A DNA stretch of 63,879 nucleotides, the filler included, from Reticulomyxa filosa (lineage: Eukaryota > Protista > Foraminifera), in the NCBI GenBank assembly GCA_000512085.1. It is 14 parts of 14 records of this genome, joined end to end, with 100 filler letters (N's around TTAATTAATTAA, not from the genome) between each part and the next. Parts side by side here need not be neighbours in the genome. Positions count along the whole stretch, not along the records: positions 2,645 to 12,952 come from ASPP01005786.1; 13 more parts are not named here. The stretch is one strand, 5' to 3'. This document shows, in pieces, positions 2,645 to 58,139 of this stretch. The notes below the pieces were generated by a model that searched no databases, had not been told where the DNA came from, and worked only from the letters and a program-made list of their open reading frames with translations. Numbering within the stretch: position 1 is the stretch's first letter; every line of letters starts with the position of its first letter. Position numbers and translations under genes: made by a program.

Positions 2645-3464
2645 GACGCTTTTTGAAGTTGTGCAAACATGGTGATATAATTTTAAAACAAACCCTTCAA
2701 TTGAACTAGAAAATTTTTGTGACGCAACTCTAATTTTTTGTTTGTATTAGATATCAAATAATTGTTCATGTAAAAAAATTAAGAGATTGGACAAGAAATT
2801 TTTTTGAAAATTACTAGAACAAAAGTATCACAATACATGTTTGCAAGCAAAAAAGAGTGAATCTATGTTTATTCAAATGCCATTATTTTCATTATCGTTT
2901 TTGTTATGTTTCTAATATCTTTGTCAATCTTAATTTACACTCGAACTGTTTTAATTTGACTGCATGAAGCGATTCAACCATTTACAATGTTAGTTCATGT
3001 CAAATTAGAAGTGATTACGAAGAAACTGAAGAATACCAGTATGTAACAAATGTAACAATGAATGAAATAAAATAAAAAAATTTATATCAATTTTTTATCA
3101 TTCATACATTTTTTTATTTCTTCTTTGCAATATTTTATCTTTTTAATATCGGCAAAGAAGATCTTAAGCTATTTATATTCGATTAATTGGCTTATTCAGA
3201 AACTGATAGAATTTTTTTGGGGGTAGTCTCTGGAAAAAAAAAATTACTAATGTCACTTGGACAAAATTTTGAAAGTATGAATAACTTATTAGGCATGACA
3301 ATTGAGAAGTTGAAGGCTTGTAGCGAAAATGGCATTGAGTTATATAAAAATGAACAAAAAAACTACAAAATGCAAAAAAAATAATTGTAATGATAATAAT
3401 ATAAAATAACAGCAACAATGATGGTGTAAATAAAAAAGACAATGTCAATATTAATATCAACGAC

Positions 3465-3558
3465 TATTCAAATGACAGTGACAATTCAAATGGCAATGTC
3501 AACTCAAATGACAATATCAATTCAAATGACAATGACAATTCAAATGACACTAATGACG
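3465..3558 (+). repeat. Imperfect ~18-nt tandem repeat (core AATTCAAATGAC) encoding an N/S/D-rich tract upstream of Rep
   Basis: Repeated TCAAATGACA(A/G)TGACAAT-like units; reads SNDSDNSNGNVNSNDNINSNDNDNSND. Confidence 0.7.
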
Positions 3559-3790
3559 GAAGTAAACAAGAAAGCCTTTATGTATTACAAAAAAAAAGGA
3601 GTATAGAAGACAAAAATACAATAGTCCTACCAGCTAAGAGGCTTAAAAAAATTACAAATGAAGAAAGTGATAATTATAGTTTCTTAGTAAGCAATAAATA
3701 ACAAATAGATGAAAGCATTAAACCAACTGAAGAATCGATTGGAGATAATACAAACGAAGAAAAAAAATGTGAAATAAGTCTAGACAAAAA

Positions 3791-4753
3791 AAAAGATTTA
3801 TTCAAGCAAAACAATTGTTCTTGACATATCTTCAATGTAATCTTTCGCCTGATGAAGCTATTGAATTGCTACAATAAAAAATTCCAATTGATGATTATTT
3901 AATTGCAGAAGAAAATCACTCAGATAGAGGTAAACATTTGCATTGTTATATTAAATGTAAAGAAAAAATCCAAATCTATTCACACTATAAACTGATTTAA
4001 ATGGATATCCTGGCAATTATCAAAGCTTTCGTAGTATATTGTCATTAAAAAATATTGTACAAAAGATAAAAATTATATAACAAATATAAAAAACTTTAAA
4101 ATAATGAAGCCATCTATAGAAGCGGTACAAATGGTAATAAAAGGTGATATTGATTGAGCAATTAATATAATAACAAATGATCCATCTTTGGCAAAAGATT
4201 ATTTAAGATATAGTTTGCGTATGGAACAAAGTATAAAGAAATTATCAAAAAGTTGTGATTTTGAAATAAAAAAAATTATAAATTTAAAAATGTATATGGG
4301 GTATCAAACTGGAATCGTTCAAAATATGTATTGTTGTTGCAAGGAAAAACAAAAACAGGCAAAACGCAATTTGCGTTACACTCTTTAACAAGCCACTGTT
4401 GGTAAGACATATTGGCCAATTAAAAAAACTTGATAATTCTTATGATGCATTGTATTTGATGACATGAACTTTTCAAGTTGGACGCGCCAAGAACAAATAC
4501 ATATAGTTGACGTAGAAGAAAAACAACAATCAATGTAAAATATACTTACGCTGAATTAAAAAAAGGATTACCACGAATCTTCACTAGCAATGATGTCATT
4601 TTTTCAAAAGATCAATCAATATTAAGAAGGATACGCTATATTCCTATAAATGAAGATATAAGGGATATCAGTGACAACGAATCAAGTGACAACAACAGTT
4701 TTGAAGTACTGATGAAATTTTTGAGCAAAAAAATTAAAAAATCTTCTAAATGA
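3791..4753 (+). mobile_element. rep: Endogenous geminivirus-like CRESS-DNA Rep (HUH endonuclease + SF3 helicase), pseudogenised
   Basis: Motifs in the expected order across frameshifts: KRFIQAKQLFLTYLQC (motif I, FLTY 3818-3829), EENHSDRGKHLHCY (motif II, HLH 3935-3943), DLNGYPGNYQS, YCTKD (motif III, 4053-4067), GKTKTGKT (Walker A, 4343-4366), IVFDD (Walker B, 4449-4463), PRIFTSN (motif C, 4571-4591), ILRR (Arg finger, 4619-4630), and a TGA stop at 4751-4753. Confidence 0.9.
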
Positions 4754-4859
4754 TTGTATGATTGTAAGATTCGAATTGGTGATGTTACATTTTCACAAAT
4801 AAATAAATAATTTGAAATTAATCCGTTGGATTGAGACAATAACTAAATAGCTTGACTTT

Positions 4860-5200
4860 GACTCCTTAATTCAAACATGTGAAAACAGAATCTATTTTGT
4901 TTCATTCAATTCCATTGCAATTCCTTTAAATAAATCTCTGAATGTATCACAATAATATCCATTTATTTTTTGAAATCTGTCAATCAAATATTGAAAAGTA
5001 TCATTGAAATGTTTTCCATTTAGATCAACTGCAATTGTCCCAATTAATTTCACATCATCTACGCACATCTGCATCATCATTTTTATCAGTGAACATATCC
5101 ATTGAAGAGTTAAAAGCTTTGTTCAATTGTTGTTTATTACATTTATATGAAATTGTTTTAATTAATTGAATGCACTTGATACGAATATTTTGATGTTTAT
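4860..5200 (-). pseudogene. Degenerate HEAT/ARM-like helical repeat fragment
   Basis: Repeating units CIQLIKTISYKCNKQQLNKAFNSSMD, LIGTIAVDLNGKHFNDTFQYLIDRF and LFKGIAMELNETK; frameshifted. Confidence 0.45.
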
Positions 5201-5414
5201 TTTTTTACGGTAAATTTGTGGGTTAATCTGAAAAAATTTTCAAACAAAATAATTTTTTGTTTTATCTTATCAAATATTGTGCCACATCTGCATCCAGAAA
5301 TTGTATTGCTTATATATTCATCTTTGATCGGGAACTTTCGTCAAGTGTTATTATGATATCTACGCAACAAATATAAAAAATGAACTTAAGCATTTGTTCT
5401 GTCTTACGGACATA

Positions 5415-5560
5415 CTATTGTACACCATTGTACCAACAAAAAACATAGTCAAATTCAGATAACACAATGACAATTGTCAGTCCTTTTCCATTGAATCTAT
5501 CACGAAACGCTTTTGCACCAAAATTATGATCACTCTTACGGTATAATAATTTCACTTTAC
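5415..5560 (-). pseudogene. TLDc-domain remnant
   Basis: KVKLLYRKSDHNFGAKAFRDRFNGKGLTIVIVLSEFDYVFCWY matches the TLDc pattern LLYRxSxxGFxxxxFHxxCDxKGPT...FGG. Confidence 0.6.
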
Positions 5561-6249
5561 ATTAGTTTCGTAGTAGTAACGATTCTAAAGCTTTTATTTC
5601 TTTAGCTTTGATAATATAGTAATCAGTGAAATTATCATTAAGACATACAATATAATTATATGAAAATGATAAATTTTATTCTTACAATATATTTATCACG
5701 ACACTTGACTTTATTTTCTTTTCGTGTTAACTTTTGTATATAATAATCATTGTATACACTAGCTCTAGTTCTATTTTTTAAAAAACTAAAATAAAAGATT
5801 CAATTATTTTTTTTACTTCGCTTCAATTGAAAGTTGAACACAATCTAATCATCTTCATGTAAAAGCGTAACAATTTTTTATTTTATCATTTTGATTATTA
5901 GGTAATCTAATACAAATTTTATGTATGTCCTTAAAATCACTTTTCTGCAAATAGATTTCATTATACAAAATGAAACTCAGGATTCAGAAAGCGTTATTTG
6001 TCAAGTCCTTAATTTCATTTTTCTACATACAAAAGCAAAATTGATTATAAATAAATATTATTTAAAAAAATGAAAATGATTTTTTGTTTTAAAAAAATTT
6101 CTTTTTGAAAATTTAAAAAAAGATTTAAAGAAACTGCTCATGATTTGATGATGATGGCATTCAGTGGCATTTGGCAACCATTCCCAAATATTTATTTTAG
6201 CTATAGTAATATAGCCAAAATAAATAGATACTGACAACATAATCAACAA

Positions 6250-7446
6250 TATAATAACATCAAACTATTCCCACAATAGTTGCTTCTTGGAGAATAGTGG
6301 GAATTTTGGACAATCTATATAAATAAAAAAAACACATACACATACATTCAATAATATTTATATAATATAACATACTTTTGACGGTGGCTTTTTCTTCAAT
6401 CTTGCGTGTCTTGCCTCCTGTCCAATCTATACACACATACATAATCAAATAATACAATATTTTATTTAAAAAAAAATATATATATATTAACATATTGGTG
6501 ATGGGATTTCATCATCTTAATAAATTTCCTTTTTTCTTCTTCTTTCTTCCCCATTTTCATCCTATTCCTCCAATTTTCTTCAATCATCAACGCCATCTTC
6601 ACCGTCATTGCTCTTTTATTGTCGTCGTCGTCGACGTCGCTCAAATCTATATTATACATTTACATACACATTACACACATACATAATTCAATTTATGTAT
6701 ATAAAAAAATATATATACATAAAAAAAAATAAAATAAAAATATGTATATTTATATATAGTACAATTATCAAATTTTTTTTTTACATACTTGGCTGATGTA
6801 GCTGTGACTTTGGCTTTGGCTTTAGCTGGGGCTGGGTCCGTAGCTGTGATTGTGTCTTTGTCTATCGCAGCAGTTGTTCTTGTTGTCGTTGTTCTCGTTG
6901 TCGCAGTTCTTGCAGCAGTTGTTCTTGTTGTTGCCTTTCTTGCTGAGTTTTCTCGCTGTCGTTGTTCTTGCTTCAGCTTTTCTCGTTGCTGACTTTCTAG
7001 TTGTCGCCATTCTTGATAAAGCTGTTCTCGTTGTTGCCTTTCTCGTTGTTGTTGTTCTATCTGTTGTTGTTTTTTTGTTCTTACTGTTGCATTTGTTGCA
7101 GTTGCAGTTCCAATTGTTGTCGTTGTTGTTGCAATTGCCGTTCTAGTTCCGCTTGTTCTTGGCCTTGTAGCCATTGTATCGACTCAGATGACAGTGGCTG
7201 TTGCTGTTGTTCCAATGCTATTCTATAATCTTCTGCGAATTGTTGTTGTCGTTGTTCCCGCTCTATCGCTGCTGATAGAAATTCTATTGGTTCAAGCATT
7301 TGAGATAATATATAGTCTTCGTGGTCCTCTTTCGTCCTTTCTATTTCTACCAAATCCTTGAATTTTGGACTTTTCTTGATCCGGCCTTTGTTATCTGTTT
7401 GGAGTAATTGTGTGAAAGACATAGTGTTTTTTTCAAAGAAATACAT
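6250..7446 (-). CDS. Hypothetical Q/E/R-rich coiled-coil protein, multi-exon and apparently frameshifted
   Basis: Q-rich ORFs 7081-7446 and 6671-7174 lie in different frames, followed by short downstream exons separated by GT-AG introns with (TA)n tracts. Confidence 0.35.
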
Positions 7447-7649
7447 GACAAAAGATCATACCTTTGTTGTTGGTCATATCTACTACTTGTTCTTTTTTTT
7501 TTCTTCAAAAATGGTTTATTCGGTTATTGCCGAAATGCAGCCTTTTTTAAAGAAGAATTCACTTTATCTCTGAATTTTTTTGATATATGTGTGTACTCGC
7601 AGTGTGGAAGTTGTGTTTTTCAGTCTCTGCCTTACTTTTTCACAATATC

Positions 7650-7800
7650 TACACTGTCCAAGCTTTACTAGTTACACACTGTATCACTCCCTACACAGTA
7701 CACGGTCTACTCTCAATTCATTATGTACACTCTCTACAGTGTGTACGCTCTCTACTCCCAATTCATTGTGTACACTATATACTCTCAATTCATTGTGTTC
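7650..7800 (+). repeat. Imperfect tandem repeat (TACTCTCAATTCATTGTG / TACACT units)
   Basis: Three copies of a TACTC(T/C)CAATTCATT(A/G)TGT unit, interspersed with TACAC repeats. Confidence 0.6.
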
Positions 7801-8069
7801 TTAATAAAGTAATGGTTATGCAATTTGTTATGTGAAAAAATCTGGTCCATGAAGAAAATTGATTGCGAAAAAAAATCAGGTATAATTTTTTTTATCAAAA
7901 AAGAATAAAATATGTTTGTTATTCATGTCTTTTTTTTTTTTTTTTTTTGCGAAAAAAAAAGCGATTCATAATTTTTTGGTCAAAAAAAAAAGAAAAAAAA
8001 AGCGACTAATAATTTTTTGATAAAAAAAAAGGGGGCTTATTTACTTAAAACAAAAAAAAAAAGAATAAC

Positions 8070-9349
8070 CATGAAGGCGTCGAGGAAAACACAGCAGAAG
8101 ACGAAGACGACGAAAGTAACAATGATTCGACCTCGGAGTCAAACACAAAAGCGGTCAATTGGGAGCCATCCTCTGAAGCACGACCACGAACAATGGAGTG
8201 ACAATAAGTTGACTGATCGTTGTGTGCTGCTTGCAACGACTCGAATCGACGCGAGGGAAAGGCACTCTGTTTTGCTCATCGATTGTTTACTTCCACACCG
8301 TTACGTGTCACTCTATATTTTATATTCATATATACATATATATATAAATCCCCTTTTTTTTTTGAACAAAGTTTAAACCCAAGTAACGTTGTCTGATACA
8401 AAGATTTCTGCTGCTCACCGTGTGCAATCGAATCGACGACGCGCAAGGCGATTCGAAGAGATTGCAAGAAATCTCGCAAATGTTGAAATTGTTAAGACAC
8501 GATAGTTGTTTGTTTGTTGTGAGGATTTAAAATAAAGACATGTGTTTTTTTTTAAAAAAAAAAAGCATGGAAGAGTGGGCCGAGTTACTGTTAGAAATAA
8601 GACTCCCCGCACACAGCGTGGCGAGAAATGGACTAAACCAGTTGATCTCGCGCATGCTGCAGCTGTTTCCACGTGACAAGTCTAGTGCGACGCACAAGTC
8701 GATCTTTGAAGCGACGCAAAGACTGTTAATTTACGTATCGCAATCACAACTTGCATCACGTTTGTCAAAGTTGGTCCATGCCCTTGGTTCGACGTGCGAC
8801 GCAGCCCGAGTTGGGATCCCTTTCGCATATACTACTCCGTCGCACCATGTCATTGTCTGTGTCAATATTTACCAACCCATCTCCGGTGTCCAAGCTGACG
8901 TTCAGACGAAAGAGTGCAAGATGATCGCGAGGCAGCTGACACTTATGATGTTCAAGCAGATAAAGGCTCATTCGTCCGACCGAGTTGCTTCGAAAAGTTT
9001 GTTTGTGTGTGTATATATATATTTGGCGTTTGTCATGTCAATAACAAATTCGTCGTTATTCATTGCGTATAAACAAAGGAAAGGACCGGCGATGACGCGT
9101 ACAAAAAATACTCCGAATATCGTGGCGCTGCGTGAGTTGGGTGAAAGTATCGCTATTTGGGAGAATTGGAAGTATGCAGCCAAAAGTTCCCTCGACGAAA
9201 AGTCGTCATTGAAAAAATGCTTCAAATCGGAGTGGAAATGGCTGAGTTTCAAAATCAATATGGACAGATTCAAATCTTTGCCGCTTTGGAAAGTCTTTCC
9301 ATGCTTAAATTCTCCACCGTCTGGGCTGTTTCGTCTTTTTTTTTTTTAA
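8070..9349 (+). CDS. Hypothetical multi-exon gene or pseudogene, no family recognised
   Basis: GC-richer exon-like blocks (e.g. within 8540-9349) separated by AT-rich introns; at least one in-frame stop near 8384. Confidence 0.35.
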
Positions 9350-9749
9350 ATGTAAAATCTAGCAATCAATCAATGAATTGGACACATATATATGTACACA
9401 TAAGAAAATCGAAGTCGAACATCTACAGTTTGCCCGGTTTCGATAAGAAAATCGAGGGCTGTTAGACAATCTGGAGTGCATGTCTTTGTCTTGTTCTCAT
9501 TGTTTCAAAAATCGCTCAACAGAACATATATTTGCAAAATAAATGTGAAATGGAAATGATCGCAACTCGTTGAACCAAATTGCGAAACCTCCAAGCTTTT
9601 TTTTTTTTTGCCCTCTTTTTTTTTGCCCCCCTTTTTTTTTGGTACGTGTAAAAAAAAATGTTATGATTTGATAAATTTTGTTTGAAAAAAAAAAAGATGA
9701 AAGTGCGGGTGCGACAAGTGTAACATATTACACGTATTGAATACAAGCA

Positions 9750-10480
9750 ATACGTATTTGAAAGGCGTGATAATGGAATCGAACCCACTTAGCGTGCCAT
9801 TACGAGATTCGTTGACTTGGGGAGACATGCCAAACATGTACAAGATGACACTGGGCTGTATGACAGATCGCAATGCATGAAAAGCGTGGCCAATGCCGAA
9901 CTTCTGTTGCTGGCCCAACAAGCTGCTATTGACGCGTCTGCAGTGACAGCCAAAATATTTCAAAGATGTTTTGTTGATATTACTTTTTTTTTTTTCTCTT
10001 TCCCCCCCCGAGAATTAACTCTGTTTTAAACAACCATATACACGCAGTCAATGTATGCTAATATGTAACGTTCATTATATATGTATATATGTATGTATAT
10101 AGGTTCATTAAAATGTATATACGCATACCCACCAAGGGGAAAGAGGCAAACATGCACTGCACGCACATCTGCACCCCTCAACGTATACACCAAATATGCT
10201 TTTATACAGTTATTTATGCCATTCACTCCAACTATTGGAATCGGTGTGTTTTCCAAACAATTGTACTTGGCATTTCAAAGTGGCAAGTTTCTGAATGTAC
10301 CGATAATTATCGGAACAAATCGCAATGAATCAGACATTGCGTACTTGTCCACTCCCCATCGATTGTAACGTTGAATACTTGCCTTTCTTGGAAGTCACGT
10401 ACGGAGACACTAGTGCACATAAGATTGCCCAATCTTATCAAGTCCCTCAAACAATTGGCTTAGTGTCCACGTCCCCACAG
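9750..10480 (+). pseudogene. Type-B carboxylesterase/lipase fragment
   Basis: GVIMESNPLSVPLRD, followed after an intron by LFMPFTPTIG...AFQSGKFLNVPIIIGTNRNES. This matches the COesterase AIxES and VPxxxGxNxxE motifs. Frameshifted, and the N-terminal catalytic Ser region is not seen. Confidence 0.6.
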
Positions 10481-11258
10481 ACAGTATTTTCTTGTGCTTA
10501 TCCAGAAATCTCACTTATAACAACACAAAGCAAGACCACACAAAATTCGCTATTAATAGTATTTTTTTTGGTTTTTCTTGATAAGTTTTTTAATATTAGA
10601 AAGTTATTTTGGTGTATTATTAACAATAATAATAAATAATGATAAGATAATGTAGCACATTTCAACATTGAAAGCATTGATGGAAGGCTTTATTTATTTA
10701 TCTGTGGAGAGGGAATTCGTTTGCTTTGTTTATTTTTCTCAAATTTAATTTACAAGTTTTGGTATCAGAACGCACTGAAGATATTATATTTTGCTGTTTC
10801 TCGCTTTTATTGAAAGAAAACAATATCATAACCTGCTGAAACAATGAGAAGGAGTCGAAATTCTCTGATTAATAAAAAAGTTTTGATTACTTGCAAACAC
10901 GAGTTAAGAAAAAAGAAACTTGGAATTGAAGTTTTCAAAGGCTCTTTCCGTTTGATGAAGCATGTGAAAATACCAACTTTGACTGAGAATAAGATCACAC
11001 CACTTTGTATGAGTGTTTTTGACAGCAGAGAAATCATTATAATATTAAACTTGGAAAAGTTTTGTTTTGGATTTCCAACTTGTAGTGTCTTTACTTTTAA
11101 TTGCTTGGATTCAAATAACACGATTCTTCGATATGCATAATCAAATACAAAGCTTTTTTTAAGCCCAACTAAAAAGACGCACACTTGAGTAAAAAAGAAA
11201 TTGAATTTAAACGTGTGCCCCCTCCCGTAAATTGGTGTCATTTATATACTTTTTTGAA

Positions 11259-12501
11259 AATGGTGGATAATAGTGTCCCTCCAAGTGCGCCTCGACCATC
11301 AGAGAGCGGTGCTGCACGAACGGAAGGAACAGGAGAAAGACGCGAAAGCCATTCTTTTGGTACGGTACCACAATATGAGACACCACAACGAGCGCGACAG
11401 CAGACCAGCCCTATCAAGTCGAAGATCCGCACGCTCAGCCTACACAGAAATCGAAAGCAGATGTGATTAGGACTTATGCGGATGGGGTTAAATACTTTGG
11501 TCCACGAAGCAAACGTATTCTGAGCATGGCATGTGCGCTTTTGCTGTATGCCTTGATGTCATTGGCGTATTGGTACGACACTGAAGATCTGAAGAAGGTC
11601 GACGATGCGGACGGTACGTCTTTTGTGGACGAGTACAATTGCAAAGGCACAGGTTTATTGTCGATATTATTCGCATGTTTGGCCTGCATATTCCTGCAAG
11701 TGTCCAAGTGTGCTAACACCGCGAAATCGGAATACGTGCTGATCAATTTGATTATCTTGGGGGTGTTTTCATTTGGAGGCTTCTTGTTTTTGGTAGGTGG
11801 TTTTGTTATTGCTGGGAGTTACGGCAAGCTCAGTTGAGTTTTAAAAAAAAAAAATTAGAAAATGTAAAAAGAAGGGGGGGGAGTAAAGTAGTTTTAAAAA
11901 AATGTGAACTTTTTTTTTAATTATAAAAAAAAAAAAGGATTTCCCCCCCCCCTTCTTTCTCCTTGTTCACGGTGAATCCAAAGATACCGACCATAATGTT
12001 GATATCCGCTCGTATCAGACAATGCATGTATCAGATGGATTTTTTATATGTCTGTTAAGCGTCGCCCTTGGTATGGACGTGTGGCGCAATTATTTGGCCA
12101 TTTCGATTCGCTTCCGAAGTGTGATAGTGGTGAACACCATCTATTTGTTTTCCGGACTGTTGTATTTCTTTGCCTTTGCCACGTTCAGCGACGATGTTGC
12201 CACCAACAACACACGTGCCGTCGCAGCTGGATTCTTCTTTGTTTTGCTTGGAGGTAGCCTGTTGTATGCCTTGGAGTTTATTGATATTTGCTGCAAATGG
12301 TTGGGTAAAATCCAGTTGTATGCAATGAAAGCACGCTTGAAAATTCTTCTCATTCTCATCATTGCCTTGTATCTCTTTGGCACCTTCCTCGTAGACTGTG
12401 GCTTGTGGGGCATTGTTGACAAGTCGAACGCCACTTCAAAAGCCAATGCCGTGGTTGTTGGAATGTCCTTTTTGTTTTCTGTCAATGTTAAAATTGATTA
12501 A
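11259..12501 (+). CDS. Hypothetical multi-pass membrane protein (multi-exon)
   Basis: ORFs 11463-11837 and 12022-12501 contain several hydrophobic helices; there is a hydrophilic N-terminus from MVDNSVPP, and an intron at ~11833-11938. Confidence 0.55.
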
Positions 12502-13079
12502 AAGGGAAGATAAGAGGATGGGGAGGGGGATGGACGAATAGTATGCAAAAAAAAAAAAATATATATATATATAAATCAAATACAAATGCAAATACAAATA
12601 TAAAACAAAACATAAACAATGTCGAAAAATTAAGAAATTCTTGCGAGCAAAGTTCGAACCAACTGTCAACAAAAATTGACGTAGCAAATGAAACGGTTTG
12701 ATAAAATGAACAACAAATTGTTGAACGATTTAAACAATGAGGACAAAAAATCGCAAAAAGAATTGAATGCGTTGGCAAAAGCCCAACAAAATTGCGACGA
12801 GAAAAAAAAGCAGGTGATTGCCGCTGAATAATCATTAAACGCAGAACTTCAGCGATTACAATAATACACTAAAAAGCATATCGTTCCAAAGTTTTTTTTG
12901 CCAAGTTTGTGGAAAAGTTTTGTGATAGTGTGGAAAAGCATACTCCGATTGANNNNNNNNNNNNNNNNNNNNNNNNNNNNNNNNNNNNNNNNNNNNTTAA
13001 TTAATTAANNNNNNNNNNNNNNNNNNNNNNNNNNNNNNNNNNNNNNNNNNNNAAAAAAAAAAAAAAATGTATATTACAG

Positions 13080-17762: not shown

Positions 17763-20074
17763 NNNNNNNNNNNNNNNNNNNNNNNNNNNNNNNNNNNNNN
17801 NNNNNNTTAATTAATTAANNNNNNNNNNNNNNNNNNNNNNNNNNNNNNNNNNNNNNNNNNNNCAGTGAAAGAAAGTTTCTTGTTATAGATTTGACAAAGA
17901 GTGCTGCTAATTTTTTGTTTTCAACTTCTGAAATTATATCATATTGTACAAGTTTGAAGTATTTTGTTCATATATTTGTTCTTAGTCCGGATCAACAACA
18001 AAACATATCATGTATTAAATATCAATGGCAGAAACGTTGGTCAGATAGTGCTTCATCTACACTATTATATTATTTCAAATTTCAAAGAGCATAGACTTCA
18101 AGTATATGTACAGTTCCAATCACATTTATCACACTCTTATAAAAAATTATTTTTTAAAGAATATAAACATTGCAACTGATAAAATTTAAACTGCTTTTTT
18201 AAATTCTCAATTTGTAAAAACTTAAAATTTTTTCATTTTGTAAGTATTCTATTTCCAATTGCAAAGTTTGAATTTTTAAAACTAAAGTAATTTGGCAATT
18301 TATTACTTTTACTTGTAAATTTTTCCTTTTGTGAAAATCAATATATTATTACACTTTTTATTAGCATTACAAAACTTTGACATACACATAATAGCTGTAG
18401 GCCACATTTCCAAAGCTATCAGTTTCTAATATTTTAAAAAAATCTTCTTTGATCAATGCAACAGAGAAACTTAGAAAACAGTCTTACTTTCTTTGAGCAT
18501 ACTTATTAACATTTATTTTTCAAAAAATTGAAAAGTTTTTTTAGAAGAATAATCGCACTTACCAGTTATTTTATGTTTTAAACCTCTGAGGAATTTGTTC
18601 ATACTTTTTGAGACAAGGGAAGCAAAAACTAAAAAAAGGTCGAAAAGGAGAAGTGCATTTATTGCCAAGGTTAAAAAAATTTGTTCCTTAATCCCATGTT
18701 CTCATTAGATTCTGGATCAATCAGTTGTGCTGATAACAAGTATTTTTAATTATTGTTTTAACTTTTATTTTCTTTTTGTGAGAATGAACGGAGACATTAT
18801 TTTCATGAACGGGGACAGGCCAAGCTCCTTTTTTTCTTATCACAATGGCGCCAATCAAAAATGCAAGCAAAACCGGCCAGAGCACTGGTGGAATGAAGGT
18901 CATCATGAGGATACAAATAGAAAGAAAAGAAGCTTTTCACAACTATCGGCAGATGACAAAGAGATTGAACAAACAAGCAACGGGCCATGCCATCAATTGA
19001 AACGGCATCGTTCCAATATAGCCAACCCAAAAAGTTTTTACCTCGAGGGCAACACGAATCAAAATTTCATTGGAGTGAATGATGCATCACAAGTTTTTTT
19101 TTATTCTTTTTTTTTAAAAGGGGTTGTTTGTGTCTTTTTTAAACGTAGATCATCTCTTTTTTTTTTTGATTGGGTGCGATTAGCTTCCAAAAAAAGTTAG
19201 CAATAAAACATCTTATCACACTAACGAAAGTTATAATCACTATCAAAAGTTACTCGAAGAAACAAATATGCGGAGTACTTCATACACTGGAGAATGCTTG
19301 AACACAAGATTTCGATTGCAGCCTTTTGAAATGAGCACAAAAAACAGCACCTCCAATGATCAGTGGTAAGTTTAAAAGTAGGGCCTTGTTTTCTATTTTT
19401 TTTAATTTATTTTGATGGATGTGTGAAATAGGAAGGAAAATATTGAACAAGCATTGGAAAAAGCGCGAAAAGACAACACTTTTGAACGCTTTAAAAGATG
19501 CAACAATGGACTGGGACAACAAGTATTAGCTGCAAAAATGCGCCAGCAAATAGAGAAACAACAGCCGGATAAAAGAATGAAAAGTTGATACATGTTGGCT
19601 CGAACAAATAAACAACGTGATCTTTGATTTCATCAAAAAATAAAATTTTTGAAATGTTTGCTGTTTTTTTTTATGTGTGTGTGTTCTCTTGTTTTATTTT
19701 TTAGATCTTATTTATTTTGGAGTTTTTGTTTTGTTGTTGTTCCTTCAGATTGTCAAACCGCAAAAATGTTGCTTTGAGAAAAGAATTACTGTTTGTTTTT
19801 GTTCAAACGAAGCGTAAATCAAATTAATTGTTATTATTCTATTTGCTCAGTTACAATAAGCGCATTTTGTTGAATTTGAAATTGCTCATTTTCAAATTAA
19901 AAAAATGTAATTACAATTTCCGGAGGGGAGGAATTGAAATACATTGACTGAAAGGAAAACAACATGCCGCATGAAAGACAAGACGTGTTGAACAAAAAAG
20001 TTTAGTAAAACAAGAAAAGAGGGGGTCGCTGGAAGGTCCATCTTTTTAGGAATTGTCAGGCTTTGTCATAGGTA

Positions 20075-23000
20075 TTGATATTCTACTCTGCAGAAATGAC
20101 ACAAAATGAGTCATATGAAGAAAAAGACACTTGCAATTGGGAAGAATTTGTGCGAAAAAATGTGGATAGAGGGCGACGCGTTCCCACAGAGCCCAATGAA
20201 GACTTGATACTCCAACATGTGGATACGGATTTGTATGTGGGATTTGTGCCAGGCTATGATGGCGAAAGAGACACAAGACTTCATCGTCCCGTGATCCGTA
20301 TATATGGAATAGACAAGCAAGGGCAGTCAGTGCTGATACACATATATGGGTTTTGTCCGTACTTTTTTGTGCAGTCATGGGGATTTGATGAAAGCCAGGC
20401 GGAGGAAATGTGCGAGCGACTGCAAAAAGCGTTGGAGTTTGCACTGTCGAGTGAAAAATCGAGTTCGAAATATGACGTATATGTTCCGAAGGTGTGCACC
20501 GTGGAAAAGCAGTCTCTTTGGGGTTGTCAATTTGGTCAGAACACAACGTTTCTGAAGATATACGTAACGGTACCAACCTTGGTCCCGACGTGTCGAGGCA
20601 TCTTGCAAGTAGGAGTGGACTTGGGTCCAGGAATCGGATTGCAATCGTTTGACACGTATGAGTCGAATGTACCATTTTTATTGCGTTATATGATCGATGC
20701 GGATTTGTATGGAAGCGCATGGTTTGAGGTAGAAGCATCACAGTACTCAGTAGTACCAAAGAATGAAATGGTCAGTCATTGTTCGATGGAAGTGATTGTC
20801 GCTTGGACCGATGTCAAGCCCCTTTCGAAAAAGTTGTCATTGCACTGGGATGTCGACAGTATTGCGCCATTGCGGCTGTTGTCATTTGATATCGAATGTC
20901 AATGTTCCCAAGGATTTCCCGAAGCCACCAACGATTCCGACAAAGTGATTCAGATTGCCAATGTATTGAAAATCGAAGGGCAAAAAGACTTTTGTTATCA
21001 AACAGTCTTTTGTTTGGGGTCATGTGCACCCATCCCCGGCTGTCATGTCCGAAGCTTTGAGACGGAGCGAGACTTGCTTCTTGCATGGGTACAGTTTGTT
21101 CAGAAGTGCGACCCGGACATCCTTACCGGGTACAATATTGTCAACTTCGATTTGCCCTATTTGTTGAATCGTGCAGCGCATATGGGTATTGCCGATTTCC
21201 CTTACTTGGGACGTATCCGCACCAGCAAGGCTCGAATCAAAGATTCCATGTTTTCGAGTCGCGCCTACGGCACTAGCGCGAGTAAAGATATCACCATCGA
21301 GGGTCGCATTCAAATGGATTTGTTCCCGCTCATTCGTCGGGAACACCGACTGCGCTCTTACAGCTTGAACAATGTCGCCTTTCATTTCCTGCAACAGAGC
21401 AAGGAAGATGTCCACTACTCGATTATCGGCGATTTGCAAAATGGAAATGACCAAACGCGAAGGCGATTGGCCGTGTATTGTCTCAAAGACGCAATGCTGC
21501 CCGTTCGCTTGAACGAACAGCTGATGATTTTGATCAACCAAATTGAAATGGCACGTGTCACCGGTGTTCCCATTACCTTCCTTATCACACGAGGACAGCA
21601 GATCAAAGTATTGTCCCAAATTTATCGCAAAGCCAAAGTGAAAGGATATTTGATTCCATACCGCAAAATGACAGGAGATGAAGAGACTTTTGACGGAGCC
21701 ATTGTAATTCCGCCACAAAGGGGATATTATGTATCCCCGATTACCACCTTGGACTTTGCCAGCTTGTATCCTAGCATTATGATGGCGCATAACTTGTGCT
21801 ATACTACAATGGCCAATCGTCATGACGCTTTGACCAAACTGAACGATGACCAATCCAGGTACACCCTCACGCCAACTGGAAATTACTTTGTCAAGCCTTG
21901 TGTCCAAAAAGGGCTTTTACCCGAAATTTTGGAAGAATTGCTGGCTGCACGCGCTGCCACCAAAAAAGCGATGAAAGAAACCACGGATCCATCCAAGCAA
22001 TCAGTGTTGAACGGACGACAACTGGCTTTGAAGATTACTGCCAATTCTGTTTACGGATTCACTGGAGCAACTGTTGGCTCATTACCATGCTTTGCTATTA
22101 GCTCCAGTGTCACCGGCTTTGGTCGGGAGATGATTGAACGTGCCAAAGAAATTGTCGAAAGTGAATTTAATATGTCTAAGGGCTATGAACATAATGCACA
22201 AGTTATATACGGAGATACTGATTCGGTCATGGTCAAATTTGGAACAAATGAAATGAAAACTGCAATGGAATTGGGGCGCAAGGCAGCGGAATTAGTGACT
22301 TCACATTTTCAAAAGCCTATTCGCCTTGAGTTTGAAAAAGTGTATATGCCTTATCTTTTGATGAATAAAAAAAGATATGCCGGCATGTTATGGACAAAGA
22401 GTGACAAATGGGATTACATGGACGCAAAAGGAATTGAAACAGTTCGTAGAGACAATTGTGAGTTGGTGAAAACAGTAGTGCAAAAAGTATTGGATTACAT
22501 TTTAATTGAAAAGGATGTGCTAAAAGCGGAACAATTTACCAAATCAATCATTTCAAAACTGTTACAAAACAAAATTGACATGTCTCTGTTGGTCATCACC
22601 AAAGCACTTGGAAAAATTGATGAATACAAAGTAAAAACTGCTCACGTAGAATTAGTTCAAAGAATGAGAAAACGTGACAGTGCAACTGCTCCCAAAGTTG
22701 GTGATCGAGTGGCTTATGTCATTATTAAAGGCCCAAAAAATGCCAAAGCTTATGAACGAGTGGAAGATCCGTTGTATGCACTTGAAAATGGTATCCCGTT
22801 GGACAGTGAGTACTATTTGACACACCAATTGAAAGAACCTTTGAAAAGAATATTCGAACCTATACTAGGAGAAAAAATCAATTCATTGTTCAGTGGGCGA
22901 CATACCCGTGCCATAACTGTCTCAACTAGTAGAGTTGGTGCGATGAGTAAATTCACTGTCGTCAGGAAAACATGTGCTGGATGCAAAGTCAATTGGAGTG

Positions 23001-23245
23001 GTGTCGGAAGTGTTTGTGATCACTGCAAAGGAAAAGAACCTCAATTGTACATGAAACAAATGGCATTGGTCCGTTTGCACGAACAAAACTTCAACAGTCT
23101 TTGGACACAATGTCAACGATGTCAAGGCAGTCTGACACAAGAAGTCTTGTGCAGCAATAGAGATTGTCCTATTTTCTACAGACGAACAAAAGTTAAAAAG
23201 GATTTAGAGAATGCTCAACGAGTTTTAGCTCAATTTTCTTTGTAG
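20075..23245 (+). CDS. POLD1: DNA polymerase delta catalytic subunit (first ATG at 20096; possible short upstream exon MPHERQDVLNKK near 19964)
   Basis: ExoI SFDIEC, ExoII GYNIVNFDLPYL, ExoIII YCLKDA; polymerase motifs DFASLYPSIMMAHNLCY, KITANSVYGFTG and YGDTDS; C-terminal CysA (CAGC...CDHC) and CysB (CQRC...CSNRDCPIFY). Confidence 0.98.
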   Translation: MIFYSAEMTQNESYEEKDTCNWEEFVRKNVDRGRRVPTEPNEDLILQHVDTDLYVGFVPGYDGERDTRLHRPVIRIYGIDKQGQSVLIHIYGFCPYFFVQSWGFDESQAEEMCERLQKALEFALSSEKSSSKYDVYVPKVCTVEKQSLWGCQFGQNTTFLKIYVTVPTLVPTCRGILQVGVDLGPGIGLQSFDTYESNVPFLLRYMIDADLYGSAWFEVEASQYSVVPKNEMVSHCSMEVIVAWTDVKPLSKKLSLHWDVDSIAPLRLLSFDIECQCSQGFPEATNDSDKVIQIANVLKIEGQKDFCYQTVFCLGSCAPIPGCHVRSFETERDLLLAWVQFVQKCDPDILTGYNIVNFDLPYLLNRAAHMGIADFPYLGRIRTSKARIKDSMFSSRAYGTSASKDITIEGRIQMDLFPLIRREHRLRSYSLNNVAFHFLQQSKEDVHYSIIGDLQNGNDQTRRRLAVYCLKDAMLPVRLNEQLMILINQIEMARVTGVPITFLITRGQQIKVLSQIYRKAKVKGYLIPYRKMTGDEETFDGAIVIPPQRGYYVSPITTLDFASLYPSIMMAHNLCYTTMANRHDALTKLNDDQSRYTLTPTGNYFVKPCVQKGLLPEILEELLAARAATKKAMKETTDPSKQSVLNGRQLALKITANSVYGFTGATVGSLPCFAISSSVTGFGREMIERAKEIVESEFNMSKGYEHNAQVIYGDTDSVMVKFGTNEMKTAMELGRKAAELVTSHFQKPIRLEFEKVYMPYLLMNKKRYAGMLWTKSDKWDYMDAKGIETVRRDNCELVKTVVQKVLDYILIEKDVLKAEQFTKSIISKLLQNKIDMSLLVITKALGKIDEYKVKTAHVELVQRMRKRDSATAPKVGDRVAYVIIKGPKNAKAYERVEDPLYALENGIPLDSEYYLTHQLKEPLKRIFEPILGEKINSLFSGRHTRAITVSTSRVGAMSKFTVVRKTCAGCKVNWSGVGSVCDHCKGKEPQLYMKQMALVRLHEQNFNSLWTQCQRCQGSLTQEVLCSNRDCPIFYRRTKVKKDLENAQRVLAQFSL

Positions 23246-49241: not shown

Positions 49242-52200
49242 AAAAACTAGATTCAATCCATTATTGTATGAATGTGATTTGCATAAACTCAAGGTGATTG
49301 AAGATACATTACAAACAAAGGTAACAAGGAACAACGAATTGCAGAAATTGTTTCATGAGATGATAAAGAATGGTTATTTGTGTGATTTAAGTACTACGTC
49401 ACCAAAAGAATCTCATAGTATCATCAAAAAACAAATGAATTATAATGTAAAGGATGAAAATGGTGAATTGATATTAAATGATAAAATATTGACAATATTA
49501 AATGAATTGAAGATATTGTATCATGATGATATTCATAAACGTATGGGATATCCACTTCAATTATATCAAATTTGTGCAATTTTATTGTATTGTGGTAAAT
49601 CATGTAATGTTCAATTCAGTTATGATCAAATACAATTTAGACATCATTTATGGCCTTATTTGGATTGGTATTTGATAGAAGCTATTGCTATCTTACACTC
49701 CCATGAAAGAAGAGAAGAAAGTGACATGGAATTATATTGTGGATTAAAAGGGGTGAGATTGGAGAATAAAGAAATAAAATCAGGATTTTTCATAAGTCAT
49801 GTAAGTACTTCTGATGATATTCAAGTTGCAAAAATGTATAGAAATCATCAAGGATGTATTTTACACTTTCATCCTTCTATGAGAAGAGCATTTTCCATTT
49901 TTAGTTGTGATATATCATGGATATCTTCATTCAAACATGAACGTGAAATTTTGTTTGCAAGACCTGTAATAAATTTTATTGGTGATGAGAAAACACATAA
50001 AGAGGAATATGCATGGAATGCAAAAGTAGAGAGTGAAGATGAATATACACAAATGATATTATTGACATGGGCGAGATATGATCAATTTATACAACAAGCT
50101 TTGAAAATTAATGCGAGATTATATCCTCTTCTTAATTTGAATCTTATTTATGTTGCACTTGAAAATTGTAATGAAAAAGATATAAATGAAGCAATTGCAT
50201 TGCTATCCGAATTTGAAGAATGGAAATTAAGAGATAATAATGAACAAAAATACAAAGAAGAAATGCACATATTTCTAGAAAAGCGTTGTTACAATCATAA
50301 CGTCAATCTATTTTATATGTTTCTCACTGAAAAAGGACCTCTGAAGAGACAACATGCCATGGAGAAATCAATGTTATCTACAGTTAATAATGGTTTACCT
50401 TTTGTTGAAAAAGATAATGATAATATATCTTTTTTTATTTTACCTTCTTTGCCTGTTCCACTTTATCAAAGTCAATGCGTAGTGCATAATTATGAAATAT
50501 TGATTTTTGGTGATTATTGTAACAACGAATGTTATTCATATCACACAATTAAATGTAAATATAAACGTATTTGTTCTTATCCAAGTAATGTTAAATTAAA
50601 TGGACATTGTGTAATAAAGCTTATGACCAATAATAATTCACATGATGTTACCTTATTGTCATTTGGTGGATATCCAAAACATACATTAATGATGAAATAT
50701 GTGAGCGTTTGGAATGATATAGAAAACGTTCAAAATGAATACAAAGAAAATAATATCAATGAGTGGATGCCTTTTATTGATAATAACAATGAACTAATTT
50801 CTATTGGAAGAGATAAAGATGATTATTTAGGATTACGTGCAATGATTAGTGGCAACAATAATCATTTATTATTTATTACATATTTTCCAAATAATATTAG
50901 CGTATTCAATTTAAATACATTTCAATATGTGAAACATAGTACTTTACCTACAAATGATAATGATAGAATAAGATATCATTGTTTTGTATCGAAAAAACCA
51001 TCAAAAAAGAATACAAATCAAAACATACATGAAATGATGTTATTTCACAAAAATACTGGGTTATCCATTGAATATGATGAAAATTACAATATTTTTCAAT
51101 TTTATGATGTACGAGTTTGTACAACTTTGAGGCCGTTTTGTTGTTATGGATTTGTTTATGTCAACGACTGTATTTTGTTTTTCGGTGGATATAATGAAAC
51201 AAAAAATGATTTAAGAGAAGTTTATCAGTATTCAATTGTAAAAGATCAATGGATAAAATTTAAATCAACTCTACCCATGTCATTGAATTGTTGTACTGCG
51301 ATACTGAGTGGAGATCAGAAATTTGTATACATTATTGGTGGTTATGACGAGAATAAGATTCTTTCTGTGAATATGAAAACAATAGTAAAAAAATGGATGT
51401 CAGTCAGGACAGAAATAGAACACAGCTGGATAAAGAGTGAAGAAAAAGAGAGAGACATTGAAGAAACAGAAAAAGAAAAAAAAGAAATTGAAAATATAGA
51501 TATGCAATTGAAAACGATGGAACAAAAACTTGATATACAAAAATTAAAAGTTAAAACATATTTTTTTTTATTTAATAGCCATATAAATAAATAACCAAAT
51601 AAAGAAAACAAAAGAAATTTCGACAATAATGGAATATTGGATTCGTTCATATTCAGTCAAGATGGGATGGATTAATGAATTTAATGCTATCGTTGCAAGA
51701 TATGTTTTGGTATGTTATATATTTTGTTTAATAATTTAATTTTCAAAAAAAAAAAAAAAATTAATAAATTAATAATAGAGAAGATACTGGAGAACATCAA
51801 AAATCCTTCAAATACAGCCTTCTTATGTACGCAATGTAAAATTTTCTCCAGATGGTTCTAAGATTGTTTTATGTTCAGATGAAACAGTTAAACTATGGGG
51901 AGTTATATCTGAAAAAAGAAATAGGCGTACTTAAAGGACATTCAAATACTGTAAATGATGCACAATTTTCACCAGATGGAAACATGATTGTATCATGTTC
52001 AGATGATCAGACCATTATATTATGGAATGTATCATCATGTAAAAAAAGGACTGAGTTAAGGGGACACAAACAAACTGTAACAAGTGTTCAATTTTCATCA
52101 GATGGAAAAACTATTGTGTCTGGTTCGCATGATCGAACAATTCGAGTATGGTAGTGTACACTCTGTACAAGAAGTAGTAATTTTAGAAGAATTATCAGAC

Positions 52201-54461: not shown

Positions 54462-56816
54462 AATCACAATACTCAATTCGGCTAACATTAATATGGATTT
54501 TCAAAATTGGAGTAATATAAAGATTCCTTATGCAATTTTAGACCGTGCATTTCTTGAAGGAACTAATTTTACTAATGCCAATTTAGACCACGTGCGTTTT
54601 TATCAAACTTGCTTAACCAAGGCCAATTTTACAAATGCATCAATGAATAGTGTTTACTTTGGAGAATATGCATACTTAGAAGGACACTCAGATGCAGTAA
54701 GGAGAGCTAAATTTTCATCAGACGGGACAAAAATAGTATCTTATTCCGATGATAATACGATTCGAATATGGGACACATCCTCAAGAAAACAACTTCACGT
54801 ATTACAAGGACACTCACACATAATAAATATGGTTCAATTTTCACATGACGATTCCAAAATTGTATCATGTTCGTGGGATGCAACGATTCAAATATGGGAT
54901 GTGCAATCAGGTAAACAAATTCATGTGTTGGAAGGGCATTCGTGGTATGTAAATACAGCAGAATTTTCATCAGACGACTCTAAGATTGTGTCTTGTTCAC
55001 ATGACAGCACTATTCGAATATGGGATGTGTCGTCCGGAAAAGAAATTCAAGTATTCGAAGGAATGTCAGATTGTGCAACATTTTCACCAGATGATTCCAA
55101 AATTGTTTCAAATTTAAATGATGAAAGAATTCGAATATGGGATGTATTATCAGGAACACAACTTTTATCACTGGAAGGGCATAAAGAAGACGTAATTAAA
55201 GCACAATTCATGTCCAATGGATCAAAAATCATATCATACTCAAGGGATAAAACTATTCGGATATGGGATGCATTATCAGGTCAACAACTTCAATTATTGG
55301 AGGGCCATACAGAGAATATAATTGGAATTCAATTATCACGAGATGGTTCAAAAGTCTTATCACATTCAGAAGATAAGACAATTCGAATATGGGACTTGCT
55401 GTCCGGAAAACAACTGCATGTTTTAGAAGAGCCAGATTTAGCATATACAGCAAGTTTTTCGTTTGATGGCTCCAGAATTGCATCTGGCTCAAAAGATGGT
55501 ACAATTCGATTATGGGATGTGTCATCTGGAAAACAAATTCAAGTATTAGAAGGACACTCAAATTATATAACAAATGTGGAATTTTTTCCAAATGAGTCCA
55601 AAATTTTGTCATGTTCAGCTGATAATACTATTCGAATATGGGACATATCTTTAGAAAGAAAAATCCAGTTAGCAGAAGGATATTTAGACTTTGTGACAAC
55701 AGTAGAATTTTCTCCTGATGGTTCTAAGATTGTATCAGGTTCTGTGGACAAAACAGTACGATTGTGGGATGCAAAATCAGGAAGACAAATCCAAGTATTT
55801 GAAGGTCATTCAGATCGCATAAATGGAGCATTATTTTCTCCAGATAGTTCCAAAATTGTATCATATTCAAATGATAAAACAGTCCGAATATGGGATGTAT
55901 TATCAGGAAAACAACTCCACTTATTGGAAGGACATTCAAAGCGAGTAAACAAAGTGGAATTTTCACGAGATGGCTCAAAAATTGTATCATCTTCATATGA
56001 TAAAACAATTCAAGTATGGGATACATTATCAGGAACAAAAATTGTGCTATTAGATGGACATTCTGAAATTGTTACTGACGCACAATTTTTAGGAGATGGA
56101 TATAAAGTTATATCTTGTTCACGGGATAATACAGTTAGATTGTGGGATGTATTATCTGGTAAACAAATCCAAATACTTGAAGGGCATACACATTTTGTAG
56201 AAGGAATGAACGTTTCACCAGATGGTTCTACATTTATATCATATTCAGAATGGGACAAGACAATGCAAGTATGGGAAATATCATCTGGAACACGGCTTTT
56301 TTTATTCGAAAATGAAGAGGTAATTGAAGCACGATTTTCTCCAGACGGTACTATAATTGCGTCCAGTTTAAAAGATAAAACAATTAAATTGTGGAATGTA
56401 TTGACAAGGAAACAAATCCAAACATTAAAAGGACATTTAGATAATATACGGGGAATAAAATTTTCATTAAATGGTTCTAAAGTTATTTCACATTCAGATG
56501 ACAAAACCATTCGAATATGGGATGTGTCTTCAGGAAAACAAATTCAAATATTAGAAGGCATAACGGGAATATTGATTGTATTCACCTGTCACTCGATGGT
56601 TCAAAAATAGTATCATGTTCAATGGATAAAACGATTCGATTATGGGGTAGTGCTAATGGTAACATTGATGATATAACCGAAACTAGTGTAGTGAGTTATA
56701 TTTGGAAAGTAGGTGTTCAAAGCGGTTTATCAATGAAAGATAGTATTTGGAAGGACGCAAATGGTTTGGAAGATGAACAAAAATTACTTTTGAAACAACG
56801 TGGTGGAATATTTTGA
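54462..56816 (+). CDS. Pentapeptide repeats + 16 WD40 repeats + GLxxxQxxLLKQRG tail: C-terminal part of a HET-E/NACHT-WD40-like receptor (5' truncated; 1-nt frameshift at ~56557)
   Basis: AFLEGTNFTNANLDHVRFYQTCLTKANFTNASM pentapeptides; 16 GH...FSxDGSKIVSxSxDxTIRIWD units counted; terminal GLSMKDSIWKDANGLEDEQKLLLKQRGGIF. Confidence 0.88.
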
Positions 56817-57457
56817 TGTTTCTTTTTTTATGTTTGTGAAATAAATCCATTCGCAACTATTCTTGTTAATACACTTAAATTGAAAATAAAAAAATTATTT
56901 GATTGAGAGAAAGACTTCATTTCTAGTTCAAAAAGTAAAATACAAATCATAAACAGGAGAAACAAAATTTGCTTTGCTATTTAAGTCTTACAAGACATTT
57001 TTGTTTTAAAAAATTTATGCTGTGGAACTTATAACATTAAAAGAAATGAAACACCAATGTATGAATGAAAAACTAATTGACGATAAATCCTTGGTTGTGG
57101 TGATTATGTAGAAAGAAAAATAATTGAAATATGTTTATTGATAGATTATTTACTTCATTTCTTTTTAAGGGATATTGGATAATAAAGCATTATGGGACAG
57201 AAAAAATTCCATTGTCAAAAAGGACAAGATAAATAGGTCAAAATTCAAATTTTTTTTTTTTCATTTTTTGGCATTTTCATGTTCAACTTACTTTCATTTA
57301 CTTGGTTCAAAAAAATACTTTGCTAAAGAAGTTAAATTGTTAAGGTAAACAAAAAAATCAGTATTAAAATATGTAAAAGAGTTTTTTCAAAAGAGTCTTG
57401 GCAAGTCCTCTTTTCTTTTAAAAAAATTAACTATTCAAAATTCAGTGACATTACAAT

Positions 57458-58139
57458 ATGGCTAATCAAAATACAACACAAGAACAAACTGGACAAAGTC
57501 AACATCTTATTACTTCAACGTCCTTTCAAATTTTGAAAGATTTACCCGTTCCACTTTCTCGTTCTCAGTGTGTGCTACACAAACACGAAATCCTCATTTG
57601 TGGAGGTGAAGGTAGCCAAGCTTGTTATTCTTATGATACACTCAAAAATGAATTCAAATTTATCTGTGAGTATCCAAGTGATATTATATTACGTGGACAC
57701 TGTGTAGTGAAACTGGTAGATAACAACAGCAAAGATGACAATCAAATCACTTTATTGTCTTTTGGTGGATGGGATAAACACACATTGATAATGAAATATG
57801 TAAGTGTTTGGAGTAATGAAAATAATAATAGCGATAATGAAAAGAATAGATCAAATAATTACAATAAATGGGTCCCTTTCACAGATAATCACAATAATCC
57901 AATTACCATTGGAAGAATTGAAGATATTTATGAAGGAGCGCGTGCAGTGATTGGTGGAAGCAATAATCATTTGTTATTTATCACTTATCCTATTGATAAT
58001 ATTAGCGTATTTAATTTAAATACATTTCGGTTTATTAAATATAGTACGTTACTAATTCAAGATTTTTCTATTGCTAATCATTGCTTTGTAAATGGACAAG
58101 AAATAATCACAACAAACGAAGAAAAAAAAAAAAAAAAAA
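57458..58139 (+). CDS. Stand-alone Kelch-type beta-propeller protein (3' truncated)
   Basis: LPVPLSRSQCVLHKHEILICGG...CYSY...YPS...GHCVVKL...LLSFGG..KHTLIMKYVSVW is collinear with the Kelch part of 49264-51594 but starts from its own Met. Confidence 0.85.

Follow-up and report, generated by a model that had tools for sequence, protein, structure and literature searches.

Replication-associated proteins (Reps) of the CRESS type nick a hairpin origin by means of the tyrosine of motif III, unwind the DNA with a hexameric SF3 ring and rejoin the resulting circles. Among the groups described so far, the one closest to the locus considered here is the "P. pulchra-like" group, which, in the consulted part of Kazlauskas 2019 (PMC6668415), comprises the red-algal plasmid replicases together with proteins of Smittium and Reticulomyxa, numbers 12 proteins including ETO15557.1, and sits inside CRESSV6 beside a wastewater subclade. 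The same part of that paper describes a GRS motif as common to the P. pulchra-like proteins, the geminiviruses, the genomoviruses and pCRESS9, and an arginine finger as kept in the P. pulchra-like proteins whereas the other three have an asparagine. Two nuclear Reps of Reticulomyxa filosa had been grouped with circular viruses and the plasmid replicases of red algae by Lee 2016 (PMC4814812), whose Fig. S9 lists RFI_31564 besides ETO15557.1, and in which three P. pulchra replicase plasmids are marked "(1)", taken by us as one ORF each. R. filosa and Smittium are both assigned to this Rep group by Craig 2022 (10.1101/2022.12.15.520654), and further EVEs derived from cressdnaviruses are reported for Polymyxa betae, also a rhizarian, by Kinsella 2023 (PMC10193959); as with Lee 2016, we draw on parts of these papers. 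The accessible parts of Kinsella 2022 (with its supplement) and of Tarasova 2021 hold no added Reticulomyxa data.

Here we describe a broken Rep gene at 3791..4753 (plus strand) of the window, by which we mean the whole stretch of 63,879 nucleotides that was analysed. We read it, with a probability of about 0.8, as a P. pulchra-plasmid-like, CRESSV6-related Rep that was integrated in a foraminiferan nuclear genome and is decaying there. The window is composed of 14 contigs, and its 13 spacers (e.g. 2545-2644 and 12953-13052) are an identical 100 nt, made up of 12 nt that carry a stop in every frame, flanked on each side by 44 N. Since the contigs are merely joined by these spacers, adjacency across them is meaningless, and most host genes are not on the contig of the Rep. 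The context of the latter is 2645..12952 only, a contig of 10,308 bp (no strand assigned) with 26% GC in its left part and 37% GC, along with host-like genes, in its right part. The Rep lies 1.1 kb from the contig end in AT-rich surroundings, and its region has a GC content of about 27%, as against 34-54% for the 63 viral loci compared. In tetranucleotide usage, the two halves of the contig reach at best r=0.47 and 0.46 with host contigs, as against r=-0.02 and -0.10 with a bacterial contig of the window and r=0.16 between the left and right halves, such correlations being weak on pieces so short. The initial annotation had taken the contig to be probably foraminiferan, which is supported by a Kelch ORF on another contig that groups with all-eukaryote Atlas clusters, Foraminifera being the commonest (scores 0.93-0.95), a result that speaks to the lineage of the assembly rather than to its species, and by the best match of the Rep, which is from Reticulomyxa.

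Other contigs of the window carry a gene for the DNA polymerase delta catalytic subunit (20072-23245; 1,057 codons, without introns), the ORF of which had no exact match in the sequence collection, and Kelch and WD40-like repeat families at 49242-51594, 54462-56610 and 57449-58139, the WD40 label being assigned by eye. The bacterial-looking contig (40073-42688, 45% GC) is likely to be contaminant or symbiont DNA and displays a gene for an AAA_21 ATPase overlapping one for a DUF4435 protein, a pairing that occurs in defence or toxin-antitoxin loci.

A six-frame reading of 3000-5600 recovered all the Rep motifs in the expected order, spread over the three plus-strand frames. The HUH nuclease is represented by motif I (FLTYLQC, 3818-3838), motif II (HLH, 3935-3943) and motif III (YCTKD, 4053-4067) with the catalytic tyrosine, and the SF3 helicase by Walker A (GKTKTGKT, 4343-4366), Walker B (IVFDD, 4449-4463) and motif C (IFTSN, 4577-4591), these last three being also recovered by a profile alignment. 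The profile alignment further delineates a GRS-like segment between motifs II and III (about 3990-4025) and a kept arginine finger, RR, at 4625-4630; two phytoplasma control Reps have an asparagine at this position. The N-terminal 73 residues match the Pfam family Gemini_AL1 (E=1.5e-9; 38.3 bits against a cut-off of 24), in line with the Rep profile hit that had been anticipated, and the other six of the seven Rep pieces have no significant Pfam match. When read with an X at each break, the Rep reaches 370 bits with a profile built from 16 relatives, ETO15557.1 not being among them. All six solved-structure matches are Reps, and the top matches of the nuclease domain are the Reps of wheat dwarf virus and TYLCV. 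A predicted model of the relative P0160 (mean pLDDT 79), as distinct from the window copy itself, matches geminivirus nuclease domains and the SF3 helicases of PCV2, AAV, papillomavirus E1 and SV40. Thus, with motifs I-III, one catalytic tyrosine and C-terminal Walker A, Walker B and motif C, the locus codes for a full-length CRESS-type Rep (HUH endonuclease, linker and SF3 helicase, detected by Pfam, profile and frameshift-aware alignment) that is broken by two stops, near 3875 and 4155, and seven frame breaks, near 3993, 4040, 4270, 4380, 4448, 4522 and 4710. The initial annotation had claimed an ordered set of rolling-circle and helicase motifs belonging to a CRESS Rep and not to a Helitron; both points stand, with each motif located on the plus strand within 3818-4630, a single tyrosine and SF3 motifs that align to the profile.

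Upstream of this core, the plus strand codes for a probable, decayed N-terminal extension (3250..3790), acidic and of low complexity, with 18-nt tandem repeats at 3425-3549 and a KKKRS stretch; its frame differs from that of the core, the shift lying at an A-run near 3790. Its alignment with the 203-residue acidic extension of ETO15557.1 scores 82 against 58 +/- 8 for shuffled sequences, 4 of 500 of which score as high, and lends modest support to homology of the two extensions. The ATG at 3250 is a possible start of the extended Rep.

The closest relative, ETO15557.1 ("rep [Reticulomyxa filosa]"), is an intact protein of 516 aa on a contig of 2,232 bp. Among 1.84 billion representatives, a single-frame reading of the Rep, with stops as X, has 350 matches at E<=0.001, of which this protein is the first (E=1.8e-49) and the next has E=1.4e-26. 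A frameshift-aware alignment of 3800-4734 with residues 204-516 of ETO15557.1 has 202 of 307 positions identical (66%), two stops and seven frame breaks, and scores 972 as against 30, 31 and 37 in three shuffles. No match was returned by a word-based search with the 73-aa Rep piece, by the single-frame reading against viral contigs, plasmids and phages, by ETO15557.1 against metagenome contigs and phages, or by an alignment of the sister clade against prokaryote genomes; against viral contigs (51 of 64 parts) the sister-clade alignment found no close member, with a best full-length identity of 37-39%. Sequencing runs queried with 2645-8000 gave no listed run, a result that counts neither for nor against the reading.

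The placement in a Rep phylogeny that had been proposed as a check was obtained from three trees, all quick, without bootstrap, and with rows that include no geminivirus, genomovirus, P. pulchra or other red-algal Rep. The window copy pairs with ETO15557.1 in every one of them, with an SH-aLRT of 100 in the 58-row tree (a quick maximum-likelihood tree made with IQ-TREE under LG+C20 PMSF, SH-aLRT being its sole support measure). In that tree, the two fall in a 19-row clade (SH-aLRT 95) with a Smittium Rep and 16 further Reps; the clade with Smittium is found again in a 79-row quick IQ-TREE tree (SH-aLRT 94), and a FastTree of 291 rows places Smittium elsewhere. P0246, which matches a CRESSV6-Wastewater row by eye, falls in a clade near that of the window copy. 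We also observed three Reps of the same lineage in Smittium megazygosporum (P0016, P0223 and P0296), one of them on a 27-kb contig, which are probably endogenous copies in this gut fungus. Judged by these sequence comparisons, the lineage of the Rep is P. pulchra-plasmid-like, or CRESSV6-related. The earlier label "geminivirus-like" is hence apt for the nuclease domain only, as the Rep retains its arginine finger and has its closest named relative in the P. pulchra-like group beside CRESSV6.

Six of the ten breaks lie away from runs of at least five bases, which disfavors pure sequencing error as their source; three of eight frame breaks are at A-runs. The window copy retains 50 of 62 clade-invariant residues, as against 55 of 62 in ETO15557.1, and its branch in the 58-row tree is 0.38 long against 0.14, being two to three times longer across both IQ-TREE trees. 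We therefore consider the decay to be probably real, and in all likelihood no functional protein is produced from this copy.

The right flank of the Rep is occupied by remnants of eukaryotic genes. On the minus strand, 4895..5200 is a decayed fragment of a helical-repeat gene with an internal repeat of about 40 aa (0 of 1000 shuffles as high), which we assign to the flank rather than to the element. Its predicted model is all-helical (pLDDT 63); we take the repeat to be HEAT-like, and the fragment is probably host-type and not capsid-like. A hint of a P2_N capsid downstream of the Rep (E=0.1-0.15) was rejected because of the internal repeat, the all-helical, low-confidence model and the lack of any match to the ORFs of related loci; a fold search of the ORF concerned was uninformative. 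Also on the minus strand, and at most 0.7 kb from the Rep, is a decayed TLDc-domain gene (5412..5615; E=4e-4, below the Pfam cut-off), for which 28 of 30 Atlas matches are TLD clusters. Further to the right, a Gln-rich gene is readable for 198 codons through one predicted GT-AG intron of 28 nt (7057-7084, minus strand). This is the only intron predicted on the Rep contig, and the same splice test failed on the gene 11200-12952; the earlier statement that intron-containing host genes share the contig hence applies to this one gene, whereas most host genes lie on other contigs. Upstream of the Rep, 2890-2975 (minus strand) weakly matches (E=0.28) a WD40-like contig and is possibly a decayed host fragment.

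Neither element ends nor a target duplication were found around the Rep, nor was a second Rep copy found in the window. The best stem for an origin hairpin near the Rep is 5 bp, as against 8-11 bp in three control loci, the control L005 having likewise only 4 bp, and the Rep locus has no nonanucleotide hairpin. A coat gene and a TAATATTAC stem-loop origin are also absent from 2645-6500, which decay may explain. In light of its neighborhood, we hold that the decayed Rep is likely to be truly integrated in the foraminiferan nuclear genome.

The initial annotation regarded the locus as an endogenous viral element. An integrated, decayed copy is indeed the best reading; the viral nature of the donor fares less well, as no capsid remnant was found, and the odds between a capsid-less plasmid-like circle and a capsid-coding virus are about even. 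Under the viral account, to which we accord somewhat less than an even chance, the donor was a capsid-coding ssDNA virus of foraminifera, the capsid gene of which never integrated or has decayed past recognition. Such a donor would accord with the neighboring clades, the genomes of which are circular, measure 2-3 kb and contain a second ORF, and with a weak match of one compared locus (L007) to Gemini_coat and basic N-termini in three others (L005, L006 and L008); moreover, Rep-only EVEs are common according to the consulted part of Kinsella 2023 (PMC10193959). At least 900 nt of spare DNA, which is room for a capsid gene, is present in 6 of the 17 nearest sized relatives, but the contig of the intact ETO15557.1 has only 681 nt to spare, the median of its nearest group. 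The account is also weakened by a comparison of 507 ORFs from 119 related loci with the Rep contig, which returned no match outside the Rep and no capsid remnant, and by the viral contigs searched, with their lack of a close member. Among the viral contigs, one of 4.8 kb (L041) has two divergent Rep ORFs (330-1412 and 3446-4555).

In the clade around the window copy, the median of non-Rep DNA is 645 nt, with at least 900 nt in 8 of 41 rows, as against 1,147 nt and 82 of 102 rows outside it; this count, made on the 41 sized rows of a 47-leaf FastTree clade after setting aside Smittium rows, locus rows and unsized rows, is to be read with a clade picked after looking, non-independent kin, possibly incomplete contigs and contig DNA that was itself unseen. 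Since most of these relatives are on contigs that leave no room for a capsid gene, a plasmid-like replicon devoid of a capsid may have been the donor. More speculatively, foraminifera might carry a capsid-less, Rep-only rolling-circle plasmid, with the 2.2-kb contig of ETO15557.1 as the live circle and the window copy as its chromosomal fossil, both being part of a wide, undescribed environmental lineage of Rep-only replicons of 1.3-2.2 kb in microbial eukaryotes. Were this doubtful proposal true, it would widen the red-algal plasmid case to include Rhizaria as well as fungi and would supply a vector backbone native to foraminifera.

It is improbable that the Rep is part of a chromosomal HUH+SF3 element, transposon-like and present in many copies, that spreads in foraminiferan and Smittium genomes. 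The consulted part of Lee 2016 (PMC4814812), in its Fig. S9, has at least two annotated Reticulomyxa Reps, S. megazygosporum has the three proteins noted above, and short contigs might be collapsed repeats; however, neither termini nor a further copy in the window were found, the window copy and ETO15557.1 are 66% identical, unlike copies of a recent burst, and P0161 measures 1,556 nt in two independent records, an equality of size that fits a defined circle. Least probable of all is an assembly artefact, in which host DNA was wrongly assembled together with a contaminant or free circle, the frameshifts being due to errors, for, even though the assembly is fragmented and includes a bacterial contig, the contig end is only 1.1 kb away and some breaks are at A-runs, there are two substitution stops and five non-homopolymer frame breaks, the low GC is host-like, the eukaryotic neighbors are decayed to an equal degree, and one third of the residues differ from the intact ETO15557.1.

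Returning to the integrated Rep, we propose, by analogy with other CRESS Reps, that an intact protein of this lineage would nick a hairpin origin via the tyrosine of motif III, unwind with its SF3 ring and reclose the circles. A small circular replicon might then have entered the chromosome through Rep-mediated or repair-mediated joining, in a region of a foraminiferan chromosome that would be rich in AT and in pseudogenes, whereupon the integrated copy would have lost function and decayed along with its neighbors.

A link of ssDNA viruses to a rhizarian host had been put forward in the initial annotation, but this was already published (Lee 2016; Craig 2022; Kazlauskas 2019): ETO15557.1 had been classified and Reticulomyxa Reps had been reported in 2016 and 2022. 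Hence, the host link and the family were known before, and what is new here is the likely fossil copy. Nowhere in the literature covered is an integrated copy in a state of decay described, outside the scope of which lie the Zhao 2021 survey of endogenous Reps and the bioRxiv supplements, which may bear on it. The published Reticulomyxa Rep is on a 2.2-kb contig and might derive from contamination. For a real presence of this lineage in foraminifera, and one of some duration, stronger evidence comes from a sister copy that is itself decayed and surrounded by pseudogenes of host type. The value of the window copy is thus as probable fossil evidence of a foraminiferan host, which anchors a host for about 15 environmental sister Reps, and as an indication of a lineage that may lack capsids. 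If the lineage does lack capsids, it bears on how CRESS viruses become eukaryotic plasmids.

In comparison with the known systems, the window copy has the Gemini_AL1 nuclease domain in common with the Geminiviridae, the Genomoviridae and the phytoplasma pCRESS9 Reps, but these have an asparagine in place of the arginine finger, and the window copy retains RR; because of this, its identity as a geminivirus Rep was rejected. Geminiviridae also possess coat and movement genes and the TAATATTAC hairpin, none of which were found with the window Rep. Like the window copy, the Helitrons have an HUH Rep in a eukaryotic genome; however, they combine a two-tyrosine Rep with an SF1 helicase (PIF1), and the Replitrons have an HUH Rep devoid of a helicase (Craig 2022, 10.1101/2022.12.15.520654, in the part consulted), whereas the window copy has one tyrosine and an SF3 helicase, and both identities were rejected on these grounds. 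ETO15557.1 resembles it in having all the motifs and a long acidic N-terminal extension, but it is intact and its contig measures 2,232 bp, whereas the contig around the broken window copy is host-like and measures 10.3 kb. Within the P. pulchra-like group there are plasmid replicases, whereas the window copy is a pseudogene, compared using trees without any P. pulchra row; nevertheless, it shares the GRS-like segment and the kept arginine finger with this group, and clusters with the Smittium Rep (SH-aLRT 95) and the listed member ETO15557.1 (100).
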